Source: a phage. From it: a stretch of DNA of 64,000 bases. The stretch lies in the NCBI GenBank assembly GCA_015370545.1, contig GCA_015370545.1_3932.1; one strand, 5' to 3'. The position numbers and the translations under genes are program-made. Shown one piece after another: positions 21,125 through 29,756 of this stretch (its first letter is position 1; each line of letters starts with the position of its first letter). The notes under the pieces were generated by a model. That model did no database searches. It had not been told where the DNA came from and worked only from the letters and a program-made list of their open reading frames with translations.

Positions 21125-21910
21125 ATGGGTATTGTAAAAATAATTAATGGTGATATCTTTGCCGCATTTGATAAAGGTAAGTTTGACATCATCGGTCACG
21201 GTTGCAACTGTATGAATTTAATGAGTGCAGGTATCGCTGACAAGATTTCTAAACTTTACCCAAAAGCATATGAGACCGATACAGAAGTTTATCTGTATGC
21301 AGGTGGTATAGGACACAAACCCTGTGAAAATTTACTAGGTAATTTCTCTGTAGCACGTTTAAAACAAGGTCGTATAGCTAATCTTTACACTCAGCTTAAG
21401 ACTGGTAAAGATGCCCGATACAGTGCTTTAGAGTCATCTTTGAAACAGCTTAACAGATACTGTGAAGTTAATCAGTTGAAGAAAGTTGGGTTACCTATGA
21501 TTGGTGCAGGTATCGGTGGACTTGACCCTCAAGCCGTTACCGTTATCATTAATCAGGTGATGAAGAGTGTAGATGTGTATCTGTATGTCTACGAAGGAGA
21601 GATGTACCACAAGTTACGCTCAGGTTGGAATAACTACTGCGAACCAGAATACTTTGCAGGTGTAGTAACGTTCACAGACAATGCAGTTACCCTCTTCAGA
21701 CGAAGAAAAGGTAAGATACATCAAAGTAACCCTCCGGTTGAAAAGATGTCTCTAAGTAACGCTCTAGTTACCCACCTGTCGAAGAGCAATCACAGAATTG
21801 CAGTAACATTTGGCAGTGATGCAGACACATATATCTATGCAAGGACTGATGAAGATATCGAGGAGATTTTCTCATCACAAGAAGTTACCTTCTTAGACGC
21901 AAAGAACTAA
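21125..21910 (+). CDS. macro-domain protein (Poa1p-like)
   Basis: 261 aa; N-terminal IIGHGCNCMNLMSAGIA matches the H-x-CNC...G-x-GIA signature recalled from yeast Poa1p. Confidence 0.6.
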   Translation: MGIVKIINGDIFAAFDKGKFDIIGHGCNCMNLMSAGIADKISKLYPKAYETDTEVYLYAGGIGHKPCENLLGNFSVARLKQGRIANLYTQLKTGKDARYSALESSLKQLNRYCEVNQLKKVGLPMIGAGIGGLDPQAVTVIINQVMKSVDVYLYVYEGEMYHKLRSGWNNYCEPEYFAGVVTFTDNAVTLFRRRKGKIHQSNPPVEKMSLSNALVTHLSKSNHRIAVTFGSDADTYIYARTDEDIEEIFSSQEVTFLDAKN

Positions 21911-21940
21911 TAAACTCTGTAGAATATTCACAATAGATTA

Positions 21941-21986
21941 AGCCTTCCTTATCTGGTAAATTTTTCAGGTAAGGAAGGCTTTTTTA
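21941..21986 (+). terminator. intrinsic terminator
   Basis: 10-bp stem GCCTTCCTTA / TAAGGAAGGC followed by TTTTTT. Confidence 0.65.
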
Positions 21987-22170
21987 TTTCAAGATTGTGC
22001 AGGTAGAGTTCTGTAGAGAAATCTGTAGAGAAAATTTTGAACTCCAAAGAGAAAATTCATTTTCAAACTGTGCAGGTAATCTCCAAAGAGCTTTTTCATT
22101 TTCAAAACGTGCAGACCCCGCTCAGGTCGGGCAAGAAAAATCATTTTAGAATTGTGCAGGTAGGTGGATG
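21984..22170. repeat. four tandem direct repeats, core CATTTTCAAA-N-GTGCAGGTA
   Basis: copies at about 21984, 22056, 22095 and 22140; CTCCAAAGAG also repeated twice. Confidence 0.6.
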
Positions 22171-22338
22171 CAGGTGGGGATGTCGCCATTTCTCACAAGG
22201 CTAACACATCTGGAAATAAAAGTCAACAGAAAAATTTGTAGCGGATTGAAAAATAATTCTTGATTGTAGTTCTGTTTTGTGGTAGTCGCGTGCGCCCGTT
22301 TCATTACAATTTTTGCAAAAATATTTTTAAAATTCCTA

Positions 22339-22430
22339 TTGACTCTTTGAGTATGGTTATCTAATATTTGCATCAACGGGGAGGGAATGACCTTCCCCAC
22401 TAAGTAAAGTCCTAAACTGGAGATTCTAAA
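22339..22430 (+). promoter_or_regulatory. type A cassette: promoter + 5' stem-loop + conserved SD
   Basis: TTGACT-17-TAATAT, then hairpin GGGGAGGG-AATGA-CCTTCCCC, then CCTAAACTGGAGATTCTAAA-ATG. Confidence 0.6.
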
Positions 22431-22811
22431 ATGGCATACCGTGCACCTAAATTCATCAACAAAGACAACTTCCGCAACGCACTGGAGAAGTCACTTGATG
22501 AAAAATTTAACGGCAAATTGATTGTTGTTCACGCATTCAATTTTAAGTATGATATTAACGGGAATAAAATCAACCATTACACGGCAACCATGTTAGATGG
22601 TACGCTATCAAGTGAAAAAGCCGTACTGAATGCACTTGCAGGACGTGGTAAAAACCTGATAAGCTGCAATAAGAGACGTTATCAAGGTGGCGCATATGGT
22701 TATGATGATGCTGTTTACCATCTTGAAAATATGGGCTATTCAGTGGAGAAAGCTGGAGCGTCTCAAATAATTGGTAGTGATGGTTATGTGACAATCTTCA
22801 AAATTAAATAA
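22431..22811 (+). CDS. hypothetical small protein (cassette gene 1)
   Basis: 126-aa ORF behind type A element. Confidence 0.5.
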   Translation: MAYRAPKFINKDNFRNALEKSLDEKFNGKLIVVHAFNFKYDINGNKINHYTATMLDGTLSSEKAVLNALAGRGKNLISCNKRRYQGGAYGYDDAVYHLENMGYSVEKAGASQIIGSDGYVTIFKIK

Positions 22812-22815
22812 AAGT

Positions 22816-22897
22816 ACTTTACAAGGGGCTTATAGTTCGATAAAGTAAGCCCCAGATAAAGAGCTTTATCACTCAATCCTAAATTGGAGATTCAAAA
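22816..22897 (+). promoter_or_regulatory. type B cassette: TTTACA + GC hairpin + conserved SD
   Basis: AGTACTTTACA, hairpin GGGGCTTA...TAAGCCCC, AGATAAAGAGCTTTA...CCTAAATTGGAGATTCAAAA-ATG. Confidence 0.55.
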
Positions 22898-23155
22898 ATG
22901 GCTATTATCAAAAACGTTGTAGTTCCTGCAAAAACTCGTGATGACGCTCGCATCATGGCGAAAAAGTTAGGCGGGAAAGTGGTTGACAACGGAAAACAAT
23001 CTGCTGTAAGATGGAGCGTGAAGGCTGATAAGCAACTAACCTTAAAACGCAGTTCAAACAATCTTTTTAAAGGTGTAAAATCACTCGGTAAAGTGAACGT
23101 GTTTACCAAAAAAGGCTATAAAATGCACTTATCATTAACTGGCAATTTAATCTGA
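22898..23155 (+). CDS. hypothetical small protein (cassette gene 2)
   Basis: 85-aa ORF behind type B element. Confidence 0.5.
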   Translation: MAIIKNVVVPAKTRDDARIMAKKLGGKVVDNGKQSAVRWSVKADKQLTLKRSSNNLFKGVKSLGKVNVFTKKGYKMHLSLTGNLI

Positions 23156-23163
23156 TAAAGTAC

Positions 23164-23245
23164 TTTACAGGGGGCTTAAAAGCTGATATCTTAAGCCCCA
23201 GATAAAGAGCTTTACCACTCAATCCTTAAACTAGGAGATTCAAAA
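23164..23245 (+). promoter_or_regulatory. type B cassette
   Basis: same architecture as 22816-22897. Confidence 0.55.
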
Positions 23246-23758
23246 ATGAAAACTGTAGAAGCTACCTTTGAAGTTGTAAAAGAAAAATTTTCCATCATTT
23301 ACGAAGCTGTTAATTGCTTTGAAGCAAGCCATAACCTTGATAATTGGGAGTTTACAGATGACCATCAAGGCGGCGTGACTATTAAAAACCCCAACTGTCA
23401 GCGTAATGATTTTAAATATGCAATCCCTTTACATTACAGCCTTAAACAGCTTTCAAGTGACTATGCAAAACAAGGCCGGGAAAATCCATCAAAAGAGGCT
23501 TACATAAGCTTACAGAAAGAACTAGAAAGAGATTTAGAGGCTTCAGAATACAACCTTGCCGCGAAAGTTGTCGATGCAAATGGTCAAACAATTTTAGATA
23601 GTTTTTATATTGGTTACGCTTTCGATTGGTGCTATAGTGACGGCGATGATTTAGAGGATAGACTAAAAGAAGAGGTGAGCAATTCAGACGCAGAATCTGA
23701 AGTATTAGAACGCTTGGAAGCATTAAAAGATTCAGTGATGAATATCTTTAAGAACTAA
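23246..23758 (+). CDS. hypothetical protein (cassette gene 3)
   Basis: 170-aa ORF behind type B element. Confidence 0.5.
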   Translation: MKTVEATFEVVKEKFSIIYEAVNCFEASHNLDNWEFTDDHQGGVTIKNPNCQRNDFKYAIPLHYSLKQLSSDYAKQGRENPSKEAYISLQKELERDLEASEYNLAAKVVDANGQTILDSFYIGYAFDWCYSDGDDLEDRLKEEVSNSDAESEVLERLEALKDSVMNIFKN

Positions 23759-23767
23759 ATAGATTTC

Positions 23768-23845
23768 TTTACACGGGGCTATCAAGCTGATAAGATAGCC
23801 CCAGATAAAGAGATTTATCAACTATCCTAAACTGGAGATTCAAAA
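23768..23845 (+). promoter_or_regulatory. type B cassette
   Basis: TTTACA, hairpin GGGGCTAT...ATAGCCCC, conserved SD. Confidence 0.55.
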
Positions 23846-24142
23846 ATGAAATTATCAAATAAAGTCCGTGAAAATCTAAGCAAGTTACTCAACAAAATTG
23901 ATTTTATCGAGACATCAAGGAATAGTCATGATGTTATGGAATGGTTACACGGAAAAATCAAAGGCCGTCGTGTAGTGATTTGCTTATGGAATAGTTGCAG
24001 GGAATATAAAAAACCTGTATTACAAGTCAATATCTATGATGATACTTTTAAAAGCCCTGTAAAGTCTAAAAGTGATTTATTAGAATCCTATGAGATAACT
24101 GTAAATGGCAAAGTATCAAGTAAAGAGGAAACACCATGTTAA
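23846..24142 (+). CDS. hypothetical small protein (cassette gene 4)
   Basis: 98-aa ORF behind type B element. Confidence 0.5.
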   Translation: MKLSNKVRENLSKLLNKIDFIETSRNSHDVMEWLHGKIKGRRVVICLWNSCREYKKPVLQVNIYDDTFKSPVKSKSDLLESYEITVNGKVSSKEETPC

Positions 24143-24468
24143 TGACTGGTATCACTGCAATCATTGCCATTTTCGCGCTATATAAGGCATATAAAGCCTA
24201 TAATCTAGCAAATAAGGCAATCACACAGCAGGTTAGCAATAGCCTTGTAGAAAGCTTTCTAGGGCGTCTCAGTGATGAGCAAATAAAGCGGTTAGAAATG
24301 AGCTTCAGATTCAAAGCGAAAACCTATCAGATAAGTGACATCTTCAAGGATGATTTCCAGTTAGTCGATGATTATAATTCTCTGATAAATGCTTTAAATA
24401 TCAGTGACTTAAAAGACTACTACGCTGTAATTGTTCAAGAGTTGAGCAAACGAAAACAAAACTGTTGA
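24136..24468 (+). CDS. hypothetical small protein with N-terminal hydrophobic helix (cassette gene 5)
   Basis: 110 aa; start overlaps upstream stop, no own cassette element. Confidence 0.45.
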   Translation: MLMTGITAIIAIFALYKAYKAYNLANKAITQQVSNSLVESFLGRLSDEQIKRLEMSFRFKAKTYQISDIFKDDFQLVDDYNSLINALNISDLKDYYAVIVQELSKRKQNC

Positions 24469-24557
24469 CACTGATTTTTAGATAGATTAAATTACACATC
24501 AACGGGGAGGGAACAACCTTCCCACTAAATAAAGTCCTTAAACTAGGAGATTCTAAA
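24465..24557 (+). promoter_or_regulatory. type A cassette
   Basis: TTGACA-17-TAAATT, hairpin GGGGAGGG-AACAA-CCTTCCC, conserved SD. Confidence 0.6.
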
Positions 24558-24830
24558 ATGTATACTACTAACAATGGCCTCACTTTGAACGTCACACTAC
24601 GTCACTATGTAGATGGTGTCATGCACTTTGAAGATTTACAAGCTGAACAACATATCTTAGATTGGCAAGTCGCAGGACTCCAAAAAACTGCTACGGGATA
24701 CGGTAAAAAGATTCCAACTAGTTGGAAAGTTCACTATGAAGGACGTTTGCGCAGAATTTATCAAGATGTGCAAAGCAATAGCGCATCGAGTTACATTATA
24801 GTAAAAGGTGAAAAACTGCATTTAGTATAA
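24558..24830 (+). CDS. hypothetical small protein (cassette gene 6)
   Basis: 90-aa ORF behind type A element. Confidence 0.5.
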   Translation: MYTTNNGLTLNVTLRHYVDGVMHFEDLQAEQHILDWQVAGLQKTATGYGKKIPTSWKVHYEGRLRRIYQDVQSNSASSYIIVKGEKLHLV

Positions 24831-24835
24831 AGTAC

Positions 24836-24915
24836 TTTACATGGGGTTTAAAAGTTGGTATCTTAAGCCCCAGATAAAGAGCTTTACCCCTAAATCCTAA
24901 ATTGGAGATTCAAAA
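24836..24915 (+). promoter_or_regulatory. type B cassette
   Basis: TTTACA, hairpin GGGGTTTA...TAAGCCCC, conserved SD. Confidence 0.55.
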
Positions 24916-25320
24916 ATGGCTATTAATAATCGTGAGTTATCAATCTTAAAAGCACGTTTAACCGTTAATCGAATCAATGTTATCACGTCATCAGCACCAG
25001 ACGAGACATTACACAACATTATCGGGAAGATTCAAGGTGTTATCTTAGACGTTGAGAATGTAAAAAACTCATTAGCAGACGTTGCAGCAGGTGTTACACT
25101 AGACGGCGCACAATATGAAATGATTGACATGTTAGGCAAATCAAAGGTTATGAATAAAGAGTTAGACTTAAAAATGTTTCGATTTGCCGTGAAAGTATGG
25201 CTATCTGTCGAGTATGATGCTAATTTTGCAATTGCTGATTTCTTTGCCACTTGGTTGCAACGTAACTTAACAAATCATGATTTTCGTGATATCTGTGATG
25301 CAATTTACGCAGAACTTTAA
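24916..25320 (+). CDS. hypothetical protein (cassette gene 7)
   Basis: 134-aa ORF behind type B element. Confidence 0.5.
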   Translation: MAINNRELSILKARLTVNRINVITSSAPDETLHNIIGKIQGVILDVENVKNSLADVAAGVTLDGAQYEMIDMLGKSKVMNKELDLKMFRFAVKVWLSVEYDANFAIADFFATWLQRNLTNHDFRDICDAIYAEL

Positions 25321-25328
25321 AAATTTTA

Positions 25329-25420
25329 TTGACACTGATTTTTAGATAGACTAAATTACACATCAACGGGGAGGGAACAACCTTCCCACTAAATAAAGTC
25401 CTTAAACTAGGAGATTCAAA
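25329..25420 (+). promoter_or_regulatory. type A cassette
   Basis: near-identical to 24465-24557. Confidence 0.6.
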
Positions 25421-25963
25421 ATGAAATGCTTTCACGGTACTACTCAAGAAAACTTTATCAACCTGATTAATAACGGTGATAAACCATCAGGTGTATGGAA
25501 TTGTTCGGATATGGACGGCAATTTTTACGTGTACCCAGAAAATAAACTCTATGGTGATGATGAGGAAGAGATAGCATCGGAAGGTATCCAGCAAGCTCTA
25601 GGAAATGCCACTATCACGGCAGCTTTTCAGATGAAAACTCAAAATATTGTTATCTTAGAACTTGACATTCCAGAGGATGAGCTAAATGATGATTATTCTT
25701 GTGATAACATGTCAAATATAGCAAGCTTTACAGAGTACTTTGATGTAAATTGGATTAAAAAGGTCTATACAACAGAGTTCAACGCTATGTATTCACCTTT
25801 TTGTCTCCCTTCACTGGATAACCCAAATTTGAATTATCTTGATGAAACATTGGAGCTACTTGCTAAAAGTATCCAACAATCCGACAGTATTCAGGTTTTT
25901 TGTGACATCATGGATACACTGACAGAAAACATTGTAGAGAGTGATTTAAAGGTCTTTTTCTAA
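25421..25963 (+). CDS. hypothetical acidic protein (cassette gene 8)
   Basis: 180-aa ORF behind type A element. Confidence 0.5.
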   Translation: MKCFHGTTQENFINLINNGDKPSGVWNCSDMDGNFYVYPENKLYGDDEEEIASEGIQQALGNATITAAFQMKTQNIVILELDIPEDELNDDYSCDNMSNIASFTEYFDVNWIKKVYTTEFNAMYSPFCLPSLDNPNLNYLDETLELLAKSIQQSDSIQVFCDIMDTLTENIVESDLKVFF

Positions 25964-26029
25964 AAACCTATACATTCACCTTATAAACACTGATTAACCC
26001 CTTACAGGGGCTTTTAGAGGGCTTAAATC

Positions 26030-26263
26030 ATGCTTACAACCATTTATCTCATCCTTTCTATCTGTAACGGTCATTCATGTGACTTTAAAGGGCTTGAAGA
26101 GTTTACAGGAAGTAAAGAAAATGCTATTCAGGTTTGCCAGATAGCAAGACAAGACTATCCCGCCAGTGACGACATTCAATGCTACTTTAAGACAGAAGAT
26201 GAAGACGGCATCTATTTTGACAGCGTTGACGGTCAATATGAAATTATCATTGAAAAAGACTAG
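26030..26263 (+). CDS. hypothetical small protein (cassette gene 9)
   Basis: 77-aa ORF; own SD after short hairpin CCCCTT-ACA-GGGGC. Confidence 0.45.
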   Translation: MLTTIYLILSICNGHSCDFKGLEEFTGSKENAIQVCQIARQDYPASDDIQCYFKTEDEDGIYFDSVDGQYEIIIEKD

Positions 26264-26354
26264 ACAAGCCTGATAAAAGTCTGTAAATTGTCAATCAACG
26301 GGGAGGGAATGACCTTCCCCACTAAATAAAGTCCTTAAACTAGGAGATTCAAAA
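26261..26354 (+). promoter_or_regulatory. type A cassette
   Basis: TAGACA-17-TAAATT, hairpin GGGGAGGG-AATGA-CCTTCCCC, conserved SD. Confidence 0.55.
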
Positions 26355-26696
26355 ATGGCTTATGTAACCGTAATTACCGATAAAGCTGGCTCATCTTGGT
26401 CAACTCAGGTTAGTGATAAGATGTCGCCTATGCAGTGCCTAAAATACTTTGAGCAGTGGAACAAAGGCGAGGATGTAAGCCCCTTTCAAGTGATGCAAAT
26501 CATCCATACAGATAACGAAGGGAATAAAACGACCTTGAACAGTGAATACTACGCAAGCCGTTTTGAAACGAGAAGTAAAACAATGAAGCTTTTACGTGAA
26601 TCCGGCTATTCTCATATTGCCGCGCTAATCTGGGATGACCTGCTAAAAAGCCAGCGTATCAGCTATGTAAAACCTGAAAAAATATTCATCAGTTAA
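26355..26696 (+). CDS. hypothetical protein (cassette gene 10)
   Basis: 113-aa ORF behind type A element. Confidence 0.5.
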   Translation: MAYVTVITDKAGSSWSTQVSDKMSPMQCLKYFEQWNKGEDVSPFQVMQIIHTDNEGNKTTLNSEYYASRFETRSKTMKLLRESGYSHIAALIWDDLLKSQRISYVKPEKIFIS

Positions 26697-26825
26697 TCAA
26701 TAACTTACAAAAAACTTTTAAAAAAGTGTTGACAATACCCCTTGACATTGGTAACTTTGTTCGAGGGGGTTTATCTAAAAGGGATTCACTTAATAGATTC
26801 TTTATAGATAAACTTAAAAAATTGC

Positions 26826-26917
26826 TTGCAAAGGCAAATCAAAACAAGTAAATTACTAATCAACGGGAAGGGATTAACCTTCCCACTAAGTAAAGTCCTT
26901 AAACTAGGAGATTCAAA
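26826..26917 (+). promoter_or_regulatory. type A cassette
   Basis: TTGCAA-17-TAAATT, hairpin GGGAAGGG-ATTAA-CCTTCCC (compensatory change), conserved SD. Confidence 0.55.
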
Positions 26918-27448
26918 ATGAACAAGTTTCAAGCTATCAACTATATTCGCTCATCCAACGTTATGACTAAGCCCGTTAAAGATACCTTCGAATTTCGTTG
27001 CAACGGTGTACACTTTGCAACTATCACTAAATCAGAAAACGGGGCTTATTATATACATCGTCGTAATGCCTCTACTGTTGTAGTCTCTCACTTTATGCAA
27101 GCTGTAGCAGAACTGTTACCGCTATTCTTAGGTATTTACTTAGATGAGTGCAAAAACGTTCGCAACCACGTTAAAGACCTTTTAAATGGTTATAAAATGG
27201 CTTATGAACGTTCTATCAAGAATCTTAACAAGTTCTATAAAGCCCCTGAAAATACTGTTTCAATGGCTTACAGTGTAAGCGGTGAGTTGGTTAGCCTCTT
27301 TGAAGTGGAAGAAATCGCGTTGCATGACTTACGCCCTAGCGGTTACTCTAAGACACTAGAGGAAGGTTTAACGTTCAATATCAAGAACTTAGAAAAAACT
27401 TTAAAAGATATTGAAAAAGATATTGACGAGACAATCAAAAATCTGTAA
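26918..27448 (+). CDS. hypothetical protein (cassette gene 11)
   Basis: 176-aa ORF behind type A element. Confidence 0.5.
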   Translation: MNKFQAINYIRSSNVMTKPVKDTFEFRCNGVHFATITKSENGAYYIHRRNASTVVVSHFMQAVAELLPLFLGIYLDECKNVRNHVKDLLNGYKMAYERSIKNLNKFYKAPENTVSMAYSVSGELVSLFEVEEIALHDLRPSGYSKTLEEGLTFNIKNLEKTLKDIEKDIDETIKNL

Positions 27449-27510
27449 ATTGTCAATCAACGGGGGATAACCTCCCCCACTAAACAAAATCCTAAACTGG
27501 AGTTATCAAG
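27423..27510 (+). promoter_or_regulatory. type A cassette
   Basis: TTGACG-17-TAAATT overlapping the upstream gene's 3' end; hairpin GGGGGA-TAACC-TCCCCC (compensatory variant). Confidence 0.55.
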
Positions 27511-27774
27511 ATGGAAAACGTAGAATTAACCACACTTTTACAAATTGCAACCGACAAAGAAGATGTAGCATTATTCCACCGTATCGAAAGCGATTTGTTC
27601 AATGGTGAAATCATTAAAGAATCTTACGAAGTTGTCGGATTCAAAGATGGTAAAGCATTTGGCTTTTTTGACCTCGACAAAAGCAAAGCGGTTACAATGT
27701 ACGATGTTCTATCTTGTGAAATTCTGACAAAATACAACGAAAAAAGGCTTGCAACCTACGCCAATATGCAGTAA
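27511..27774 (+). CDS. hypothetical small protein (cassette gene 12)
   Basis: 87-aa ORF behind type A element. Confidence 0.5.
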   Translation: MENVELTTLLQIATDKEDVALFHRIESDLFNGEIIKESYEVVGFKDGKAFGFFDLDKSKAVTMYDVLSCEILTKYNEKRLATYANMQ

Positions 27775-27841
27775 ATTACTAATCAACGGGGAGGGAATGA
27801 CCTTCCCACTAAACAAAGTCCTAAACTGGAGAATCTAAATT
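27749..27841 (+). promoter_or_regulatory. type A cassette
   Basis: TTGCAA-17-TAAATT, hairpin GGGGAGGG-AATGA-CCTTCCC, conserved SD. Confidence 0.55.
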
Positions 27842-28090
27842 ATGTCAACTATCCGCGTAACTGTTAATGCTTATGGCTGCCACAAACTTGATGCAAAATT
27901 CGATATCGGTGGAACAGATAACACCTTTGACCTTATCAAAATGCTGATTCAGCAGGTGATACCAGATTATAACCCTACTGATGACTTCTGGAAAGATGCC
28001 GTAAAAGAAGCCATAAACGAGGAATCTCACTACCATTATTGGGGTGACTTGATTGTCTCTCTATACTACAGCAAACAAGGCTACAACTAA
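27842..28090 (+). CDS. hypothetical small protein (cassette gene 13)
   Basis: 82-aa ORF behind type A element. Confidence 0.5.
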   Translation: MSTIRVTVNAYGCHKLDAKFDIGGTDNTFDLIKMLIQQVIPDYNPTDDFWKDAVKEAINEESHYHYWGDLIVSLYYSKQGYN

Positions 28091-28128
28091 TCGACGCAAC
28101 GGGGCTAAATAGCCCCAGATACCTTTAC

Positions 28129-28152
28129 AGCCCCTTAAATGGGGCTTTTTTA
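28129..28152 (+). terminator. intrinsic terminator closing the cassette array
   Basis: AGCCCC-TTAAAT-GGGGCT hairpin followed by TTTTTT. Confidence 0.7.
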
Positions 28153-29756
28153 CGTCTATCGAATCCTTATACAATCCCTTTCCCTTTCCTTTCTAGAATC
28201 TTATCAGACCTTAAAAAGCAATAACTCTATAGTCTACTCTATAACCTCTTATCAAATCAACTTAAATATAAGCCAATAACCCCAGAAAGGGGATGGCCCA
28301 TTAAAACGCTCTATAAAGCTCTATAACAGCCTTATCAACCTAACTTAAGCAATCATATTAACCCACTCTAAAAAGCCCTTTATAGAGCTTCCCAGAGCCT
28401 TAAAAGAATCTTATAAGGGTGAAAGCTTATAGGCTGGCTAGTATCTTGTGAATAACTAAACAATCCCCTTGATAGTCACTAAAAAGCATGTTATAGGGGC
28501 TATAAAGTTACTTCAAAGTAACGTAAAAAAGGCTATAAAGTTACGTAAATGCTAGCCCCCTTAACATTTTCTTAACAATTTCTTAACAATCCCTACATAG
28601 TTATGCTTGTTAGAGACTTGTTAGCCCCTTGTTAAATCTCTGTTACAACCATGTAAAAGCCTTGTAAGAACCTTTGACATAGCCTTAAAAGCCCTGTAAA
28701 GCCCTATAAAGAGCTATCCATACAGTTGGGCTGTAGTTACTAGGGAGAGACTTAAAAGGGGCTATACAGAGCTATAGAGGGCTTTTAAGAGGTATGTTTA
28801 AAGAATCACTAAGAATCAAAGGGAACGATAAGAAAAGAGATAGTGACCATGTTAATAGCTTGTTAAAAAGATTAAACACTTGTTAGAAACTTGTTAATTA
28901 TCCCTACAAAATAACTCTTTAAAATTAACTTGTTAGCTCTTGTTAGTCATCTGTTAAGACTCTGTAAAGACTATTCAGCACTTGTTAGAAAACTGTTAAG
29001 TTCTTGTTAGTTCTGTTAAGAAACTGTTAAGACCTTTGGAGAGTTGTTAAGAGCTTGAGAGAGTTGTTAAGAGATTGTTAAGGATATTTTAAAATTCTGC
29101 AAAGTACTTGTAAGGGAGCTGTTAAGGGCTACCAAGCAGATATACATCTTCTACAGATATTTTTCAGTTCCTTCAAAGACCCTAAAAAATGACTTGATAG
29201 CCCTATTTTATAAAAATTTTAAAATTCTGAATAATTACCTAGACAGTCTTTTAAAAATACAGGTAGAAACAGGCTTATAAGATACCTTGTTAGTACCGTG
29301 TTAGACCTTGTGAGATAAGGTCTGTGAAGATATTCCTGTTAAGTTTGTTAAAACAGTCTATATAGAGGCTTAGTAGTACCTAGTGAACATCTATAGAGGG
29401 TATCATAGCTAACCTAGAGATTAAGAGGTGTATAGGGGCTTCTAAGAGGGTATAGAGAGATGGTTAAGGTGATTGTATAGGTTGTTAAGAAGGATTGTTA
29501 GAAGAGTGTTTAGAGGGCTATTTAGAAGGGTTATACAGAGGGCTATTAAGACCACTAGATAGTTACTAAGATACTATATAGTACTATATAACTATATAGA
29601 GAGTAAGATTAAGAAGGTTGTTAAGAAGGATAGATATCTTATTCACATATGATGGTGACCCAGAGGTTGGGACAACCGATAAAATTTTATAAAAATATAA
29701 ATTTCGTAAATTTTACTCAATAAAAAGCCCCCAATTAAGGAGGCTCTTAAGATATT
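28153..29756. repeat. ORF-free region dense in short direct repeats (iteron-like)
   Basis: no ORF of 60 aa or more in 1.6 kb; roughly 25-30 copies by eye of CTTGTTAG / CTGTTAAG / GTTGTTAAGA, plus GCTATAAAG, CCTTAAAAG and TTTTAAAATTCTG repeats. Confidence 0.7.

Follow-up and report, generated by a model that had tools for sequence, protein, structure and literature searches.

A conserved array of four direct repeats behind the macro-domain gene of Felixounavirus genomes: a probable protein-docking site and candidate replication element

Introduction

What is the role of four direct repeats that lie in a gene-free gap between two early genes of a lytic phage? The question was raised by a stretch of 64,000 nucleotides (hereafter the window) from a Felixounavirus genome (Ounavirinae), the full genome being about 87 kb. 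An initial annotation, made from the letters of the window, had reported the repeats and suggested that they form either a binding-site array or a recombination or replication element. Literature searches returned no description of this four-repeat array, and no replication, binding or expression data for its locus. The genome descriptions of Felix O1 and wV8 list direct repeats, but these are the promoter and 5'UTR repeats of the downstream cassette genes and not the four copies analyzed here. The main text of the PhageMaP study of Felixounavirus Bas63 does not mention the array locus.

Results

The gene-free gap downstream of the macro-domain gene

The array region matched 227 phage records, nearly all of which were Felix-O1-like myoviruses (Ounavirinae, Felixounavirus). 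The nearest relative in the region around the array was Escherichia phage vB_EcoM-Ro111lw, with 97.5% identity. The left part of the locus and its boundaries are as follows.

21125-21910, + strand: macro-domain gene (Pfam Macro)
21911-22430: gene-free gap of about 520 bp that separates the macro-domain gene from the first small early gene
21940-21987, + strand: intrinsic terminator of the macro-domain gene, a hairpin with a 17-bp stem (21940-21981) plus a T-run
22431-22811, + strand: first small cassette gene, ATG at 22431

The terminator is also annotated in the AYO145A and wV8 records. Its T-run doubles as the A/T tract of the first repeat (R1), and the array thus starts inside the T-run. 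The four sites are enclosed by a long early transcription unit whose genes all point the same way, and the replication genes lie far off. GC skew showed no inflection at the array and tracked the direction of transcription. Over about 23000-28000 of the window, the skew dropped steadily from about +0.12 to about 0 while the genes were still on the + strand, which suggests that the cassette genes and the early genes upstream of them differ in compositional history.

The macro-domain protein has 261 aa, and its closest solved structures are TARG1/OARD1-type macrodomains; a C-terminal extension of about 110 aa gave no family match. TARG1-like macrodomains include DarG, and an anti-DarT role for this protein, by reversal of DNA ADP-ribosylation, may be taken as a lead. 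In the divergent contig L029, the protein has 148 aa and consists of the macro part alone, yet the array is kept.

Four diverged copies of a bipartite motif

A regular-expression scan and a repeat finder located four copies, all on the + strand, of the bipartite motif W5-TCATTTT-N6-GTGCA(GGTA).

21984-22005, + strand: R1 core, TTATTTC-AAGATT-GTGCA-GGTA, first half-site degenerate
22010-22033, + strand: two copies of the 12-bp tandem TCTGTAGAGAAA in the long spacer between R1 and R2 (TRF)
22042-22078, + strand: R2 full unit, CTCCAAAGAG + AAAAT + TCATTTT-CAAACT-GTGCA-GGTA, core at 22057-22078
22081-22117, + strand: R3 full unit, CTCCAAAGAG + CTTTT + TCATTTT-CAAAAC-GTGCA-GACC, core at 22096-22117
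22126-22162, + strand: R4 full unit, GTCGGGCAAG + AAAAA + TCATTTT-AGAATT-GTGCA-GGTA, core at 22141-22162

The initial annotation had placed four direct repeats just after the terminator of the macro operon, and the + strand core starts at 21984, 22057, 22096 and 22141 confirm it. Its spacing of about 45 bp holds for R3 to R4 (45 bp) and not for the array as a whole, in which the cores start 73, 39 and 45 bp apart. The motif that it gave, CATTTTCAAA-N-GTGCAGGTA, is exact in R2, deviates at 2 positions in R4 and at more in R1 and R3; the unit is instead a bipartite core with an A/T tract.

The copies differ in several details. The first half-site of R1 reads TTATTTC in the window phage versus TCATTTC in most relatives, and R3 terminates in GACC where the other three copies end in GGTA. 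The word CTCCAAAGAG occurs exactly twice, at 22042 and 22081, directly 5' of R2 and R3. The repeat units are 71-82% identical to each other according to the repeat finder. Because the units have diverged, TRF reported no tandem repeat for the four of them, its sole call being the 12-bp duplication at 22010-22033.

The clustering of the repeats is far beyond chance. With 3 mismatches or fewer allowed, the 21-mer matched twice, compared with 0.00 expected in 100 shuffles, and GTGCAGGTA matched 5 times (three of them inside the array), compared with 0.41 expected. The combination TCATTTT-N6-GTGCA, even with 1 mismatch, was found nowhere outside the array in the 64-kb window, nor in the 24.5 kb by which the genome of the nearest relative goes beyond the coverage of the window.

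Conservation of the array across the Ounavirinae

The array was present in all relatives examined, including distant genera; the initial annotation had named its absence from close relatives as the observation that would speak against it. Its locus is constant, directly 3' of the macro-domain gene, and holds three to five copies in Felixounavirus, Mooglevirus, the Erwinia phages of Kolesnikvirus and contig L029. The Felixounavirus layout has core distances of 73/39/45 bp, with 73/39/43 in wV8 and three copies at 75/45 in the BPS17L1 type. The layout in Mooglevirus (Michonne and Sf13) is 75/41/45. The Kolesnikvirus phages Roscha1 and BoyaciRG1 carry four copies at 37/37/39, and GTGCATAG replaces GTGCAGGT in them. 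In L029, an 88-kb contig, about five copies follow directly downstream of the macro-domain gene. The 12-bp TCTGTAGAGAAA tandem is kept within Felixounavirus and is missing from the Erwinia phages, where the spacing is 37 bp. Array spacing shifts by 2-6 bp between genera, within an overall range of 37-75 bp, so that the sites do not keep a constant helical phase.

When the gap sequences of eight phages from three genera were aligned, the four copies of (T)TCATTT..-N-GTGCA were the sole elements invariant in all. When the gap was compared to the Erwinia phages by blastn in its distant mode, the alignment within the roughly 521 bp was limited to 22056-22158, that is, R2 to R4. Column by column, positions 21895-22165 were almost invariant. 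Within Felixounavirus, mean identity to the window was 96.5% for the array, above the values of the macro gene (94.2%) and of the gene that follows the array (92.6%). Between genera, the array is constant, whereas the genes behind it differ.

Outside this group, the pattern was scanned for in 185,579 reference genomes of bacteria and archaea and matched 18 times, always in unrelated tandem repeats of non-enterobacterial MAGs; the paired motif was absent from the enterobacterial host genomes in the same scan. A metagenome pattern scan returned 59 matches, about 15 of which were Ounavirinae contigs and the remainder unrelated repeats. The 31 viral-contig loci include at least one from an unrelated phage (L021), which has a 50-bp duplication upstream of an Arc-like gene. 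The four-repeat array is a real, strongly conserved non-coding DNA element, and it was previously undescribed in the searchable literature.

The units are related by duplication of about 40 bp, with extended similarity that includes CTCCAAAGAG and GTCTGGCAAG, as a functionless remnant of a tandem duplication would be. It is nevertheless very improbable that the repeats are such a remnant, since the cores are invariant in three genera while the flanking non-coding DNA has diverged beyond alignment, and conservation is higher in the array than in the genes next to it.

Some records annotate a small protein-coding gene over the repeats, namely wV8 gp13 on the + strand and Ro111lw_00140, Michonne gp98 and Roscha1_00126 on the - strand, and open frames of 45-95 codons do exist on both strands. 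The annotated strand and extent vary between records, however, and several overlapping frames are open simultaneously. The reading frames of the successive cores differ within a genome and between genera (0,1,1,1; 0,1,1,2; 0,0,0; 0,0,2,2; 0,1,2,2). No meaningful family match was obtained, the one PHROG match having E = 2e-4 over 19 residues. A coding function is accordingly scarcely credible. In many records, 'hypothetical protein' genes of 50-66 codons are annotated over the repeats at 21989-22189 (-), 21997-22149 (+) and 22037-22204 (+). The small ORFs annotated here are probably spurious, artefacts of repeat composition, and their removal from annotations is probably warranted.

Anatomy of the repeat unit

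To describe the unit, 71 distinct copies were pooled; the scan pattern had fixed ATTT and GTG.A, and these positions are therefore not independent information. The base preceding the core was T in 99% of the units. The five bases before that T were practically all A or T, with G at 0 and C at no more than 3% per position. A purine-rich stretch lies 5' of this A/T tract, with G at -7 in 86% of the units. The 6-bp spacer between the half-sites is A/T-biased, and the base 3' of GTGCA is G or T. The consensus is thus a purine-rich stretch followed by W5, TCATTTY, N6, GTGCA and K, about 30 bp in all. The two half-sites, TCATTTT and GTGCA, are about one helical turn apart from centre to centre.

Similarity further upstream (GACTCCAAAGRG and GTCTGGCAAG) occupies the entire period of 37-45 bp. 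The array thus goes back to an old tandem duplication of some 40 bp, of which the core alone has stayed constant.

The W5 tract is A5 in some copies and T5 in others, with a pattern that varies by genus. Because A5 and T5 are equivalent for the shape of duplex DNA only, their interchange suggests that the array acts as duplex DNA and not as RNA. It is the strongest internal evidence for a double-stranded DNA function and fits a groove-shape read-out.

Elements between the array and the cassette genes

Several elements lie to the right of R4, and the cassette genes beyond them have promoters of their own.

22166-22217: two-allele segment of 52 bp, found in the alignment of relatives
22218-22338: block B, the second conserved non-coding block, with an A/T-rich right end
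22226-22198, - strand: promoter-like site facing the array, TTGACT at 22226-22221, 17 nt with TGn, TAGCCT at 22203-22198
22339-22430, + strand: promoter TTGACT-17-TAATAT of sigma-70 type with a conserved 5'UTR hairpin and a ribosome-binding site ('DR_6' in wV8)
22811-22907, 23157-23253, 24465-24557 and 24829-24925: examples of the cassette repeats
25329-25421, 26262-26354, 26826-26918 and 27749-27841: further examples of the cassette repeats

The window and AYO145A share one allele of the 52-bp segment, and most relatives, among them Felix O1, wV8 and Mooglevirus, have an unrelated C-rich allele (loci L007, about 1255-1306, which is Felix O1, and L004, L008 and L009). The breakpoints of the allele replacement are the end of R4 and the invariant AAAAGTCAA. 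On the - strand, the C-rich allele presents four or more G-runs (G6-A-G5-AGTAAGA-G5-AGA-G4), which might fold into a G-quadruplex or promote an R-loop. In the Erwinia phages, too, a C-rich stretch lies to the right of the array.

Block B is conserved between Felixounavirus and Mooglevirus and cannot be aligned in the Erwinia phages. The GC content of 22310-22369 is 0.20, and this stretch is the promoter region of the next gene. On the - strand of block B, TTGACT is invariant and is followed 17 nt on by TAnnnN, which is TAGCCT in the window and TAAGAG or TAATAG in Felix O1, wV8 and Mooglevirus. This site could be a weak leftward promoter toward the array, its -10 being weak.

The promoter/UTR families that recur through the cassette region start with the element at 22339-22430. 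The cassette genes (22431-28090) are each preceded by a 57-97-bp repeat from one of a few families, which contains a sigma-70-type promoter, a G+C-rich 5'UTR hairpin and a ribosome-binding site. In the wV8 annotation, these repeats are DR_1 and DR_6 to DR_9. The first cassette promoter (22339-22367) follows the array at a distance of about 175 bp, and in all genera the nearest promoter is about 175-215 bp away. The four-site motif occurs in none of the at least ten promoters of the cassette region.

Weighing of an RNA product

The leftward site in block B would allow the array to work as RNA. A non-coding transcript of about 250 nt, starting near 22192 and running from R4 through R1 into the hairpin, would expose four units that serve a protein as binding sites or decoys, as in a type III antitoxin (ToxI-like) or a sponge RNA. 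Type III antitoxin repeats are similar in length to the 37-45-nt units seen here. Every unit carries an invariant AAAAUGA on the - strand, the - strand TTGACT and its TAnnnN at 17 nt are kept in both Felixounavirus and Mooglevirus, and the hairpin at 21940-21981 is nearly symmetric. However, the swap of A5 and T5 would not be neutral in RNA, and the units are diverged with a period that varies from 39 to 73, whereas ToxI-type arrays are near-identical and of constant period. The putative -10 is without its final T in most relatives (TAAGAG), and in the alignment of the Erwinia phages no equivalent promoter or two-way terminator was found by eye. There was no toxin-like or endoribonuclease toxin gene among the neighbouring proteins. 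Conservation this deep over different hosts would also be unexpected for a decoy against one defence system. An RNA function of this kind is therefore unlikely.

A structured non-coding RNA was rejected: folding was no better than that of shuffled sequences (z = 0.28 on the + strand, 0.19 on the - strand), and there was nothing meaningful in Rfam, where no known antitoxin RNA family matched at E up to 5 on either strand.

Weighing of transcription control

The array sits between the macro-operon terminator and the first cassette promoter, starts in the T-run of the former, and has all of its sites oriented with transcription. These features are what would be expected if the sites bound a regulator or a roadblock at the boundary between the macro operon and the cassettes. 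Such an element could block terminator read-through, act on the first cassette promoter as operator or enhancer, or control the leftward promoter of block B. Independent sites without fixed phasing suit a roadblock or a multi-site operator. The phage encodes at least one XRE-type HTH protein (99 aa, elsewhere in the genome), which could supply a regulator; the sites are asymmetric, unlike the palindromes that XRE proteins usually bind. Temporal regulation of transcription in the Felix O1 group has been stated as unknown (PMC3185647).

Other observations argue against this role. The motif is unique to the array, while the at least ten cassette promoters have repeat families of their own without it. 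The nearest promoter is some 175-215 bp away in every genus. Finally, the genes downstream vary between genera and the array does not. Control of transcription at this boundary is thus a possibility that we consider doubtful. The more specific proposal of the initial annotation, in which the small-gene cluster downstream is controlled by the array, is weak: about 175 bp separate it from the promoter, the cassette genes have their own promoters and 5'UTRs, and the genes behind the array are not conserved.

Known site classes were also compared to the repeats. A promoter scan found no sigma-70 site in 21984-22165 on either strand, in agreement with the absence of a sigma70 match reported earlier. 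A phage-specific promoter class was rejected, the core occurring at this locus only in about 87 kb. As a lead, comparison by eye with consensus sequences gave no fit over all four copies for sigma-54, sigma-E, sigma-32, the T4 MotA box or T4 late promoters, for DnaA, IHF, Fis, CRP, OmpR or PhoB sites, or for MarA/Rob, LexA, Fur or EcoKI (AAC-N6-GTGC) sites.

Position of the genome ends

In phages with direct terminal repeats, short repeat arrays can be found close to the genome ends. The partial record LMP34 stops 31 bp past the array, and one Erwinia phage record begins about 390 bp before it. These coincidences would suit a packaging or genome-end signal, either a pac site or a terminal-repeat element. 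Yet the terminal repeat of the close relative UAB_Phi87 maps about 21 kb away: its record has 542 bp identical at both ends, homologous to window 42995-43536. A terminal repeat of 608 bp was mapped in that phage by Bal31 digestion and run-off sequencing (PMC4837284). By this homology, the physical genome ends of the window phage are probably at 42995-43536, in the tRNA region, and a packaging role for the four repeats is extremely unlikely.

Protein docking and a possible origin of replication

The array is unique in the genome and conserved over the subfamily, and its sites are co-oriented, asymmetric and bipartite with an adjoining A/T tract. From these features, the four repeats are quite probably docking sites for one sequence-specific DNA-binding protein that forms a single complex per genome. 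The general idea of the initial annotation, a binding-site array or a replication element, therefore stands as the best-supported reading of the sequence, with its repeat details corrected.

In the following scheme, the binding of a protein, the nature of that protein and a part in replication are all inferred. One protein, encoded by the phage or by the host, would bind the four same-orientation sites through the TCATTTT and GTGCA half-sites. The bound array would nucleate a single-copy nucleoprotein complex, and this complex would be the replication origin of the phage or a component of it. The adjacent C/G-run segment could, together with the A/T-rich block B and the promoters on either side, provide both transcriptional activation and unwinding for the T7-gp4-type primase-helicase of the phage.

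The replisome is T7-like and includes a primase-helicase with Toprim plus DnaB_C. The T7 origin fires from regions with a promoter and A/T-rich DNA, and iterons are asymmetric co-oriented sites bound by monomeric initiators. The single-copy array, its iteron-like direct repeats, the adjacent G/C-run and A/T-rich DNA with promoters, and the T7-gp4-type primase-helicase led us to rank the origin role first and a transcription boundary or operator second. An iteron-like four-site array of duplex DNA that nucleates a single-copy complex, most likely a replication origin or part of one, is accordingly a tentative proposal, to which we give somewhat less than an even chance.

Scans of the neighbouring and replication-region proteins against Pfam and PHROGs gave no match to a replication-initiator family, and the neighbouring proteins gave no match to a DNA-binding family. 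No link to the array was found for the macro protein, the neighbouring proteins or the XRE-type HTH protein. Against an origin stand this lack of a recognisable initiator gene, the spacing without conserved phase, the position inside a co-directional early unit and away from the replication genes, the GC skew without inflection, and a rival region of 1.65 kb further downstream.

The repeat region behind the cassette genes

28091-29756: gene-free repeat region of 1.65 kb, where the + strand early/cassette unit meets a - strand unit

This region contains YTAACA three times at 28561-28590, followed by dozens of (C)TTGTTAR / CTGTTAAG units. Many of the TGTTAR/YTAACA units are placed at 11-bp intervals, for example at 28927-28971, and units of GGCTATAAAG, CCCTATAAAG and GCTATACAGAG are also present. 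Direct repeats of TGTTA in 11-bp phasing presumably recall the sites of ArcA-type response regulators. The region is a candidate origin, terminus or protein-sponge region, and as a candidate origin it is equally good as, or better than, the four-site array.

A stretch dense in TGTTAR/YTAACA words lies 5-7.5 kb 3' of the array in Felixounavirus, Mooglevirus-type and Erwinia-type contigs. The array and this dense region thereby flank the variable small-gene cassettes in Felixounavirus, Mooglevirus and the Erwinia phages, and in L029 the YTAACA-rich stretch directly abuts the array. Because the two adjoin in L029 and bracket the variable cassette block elsewhere, they might be the halves of one ancestral non-coding control region. 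The array would then be the boundary or landing pad of a protein-bound platform for the acquisition and expression of cassettes, loosely comparable to an integron platform but here in a lytic phage. We regard such an origin of the two elements as quite improbable.

Discussion

The array was compared to known systems that use direct repeats. With the origin iterons of lambda ori, P1 oriR, F/R6K/pPS10 Rep-iteron systems and T4 oriE, it shares several co-oriented direct repeats at one locus per genome, an asymmetric site of about 20-30 bp over two adjacent major grooves, and A/T-rich DNA and promoters nearby. It differs in its spacing, which is 37-75 bp and not phase-conserved, whereas iterons repeat at about 22 bp (21-23 bp or multiples). 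Among the proteins scanned, no Rep-type initiator gene was adjacent or recognisable. Furthermore, the replisome of this phage is T7-like, and T7 origins are promoter-driven and not of the iteron type. Since regular spacing and a recognisable cognate initiator are both missing, the array was not assigned to the iteron family.

With the Cox boxes of P2, the Xis sites of lambda and the p4 sites of phi29, the array shares co-oriented sites with A/T tracts in a promoter-proximal non-coding gap. By this comparison, the binder would probably be a small phage protein. Those sites are 9-15 bp long, follow one another closely at about one helical turn and extend into the promoters that they control, whereas here 37-75 bp separate one repeat from the next and at least 175 bp lie between the array and the nearest promoter.

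ToxI, CptI, TenpI and the pseudo-ToxI mimics of phages share with the array head-to-tail units of about 36-45 nt in non-coding DNA of an enterobacterial phage context. The array differs from ToxI, CptI and TenpI in its inconstant period, diverged units and interchangeable A5/T5 tracts, and in having no adjacent toxin gene or Rfam match. The promoter-plus-stem-loop cassettes of T4 type (PeSLs) resemble the promoter/5'UTR modules that the cassette genes carry. The four repeats lie outside such modules, have a different sequence without a promoter consensus, and occupy a single locus in the genome. Judged by these analogies, the closest counterparts of the array in function would be origin iterons or the direct-repeat arrays that small phage regulators bind.

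Felix O1 and related phages are classic tools for the typing of Salmonella and are now used in phage therapy, in biocontrol (including that of Erwinia) and in genome-engineering screens (Bas63). A unique non-coding array conserved over the subfamily is a testable candidate for one of the missing control points of these phages, be it the replication origin or the timing of expression. It also marks a part of the genome to leave undisturbed, or to exploit, when these phages are engineered.
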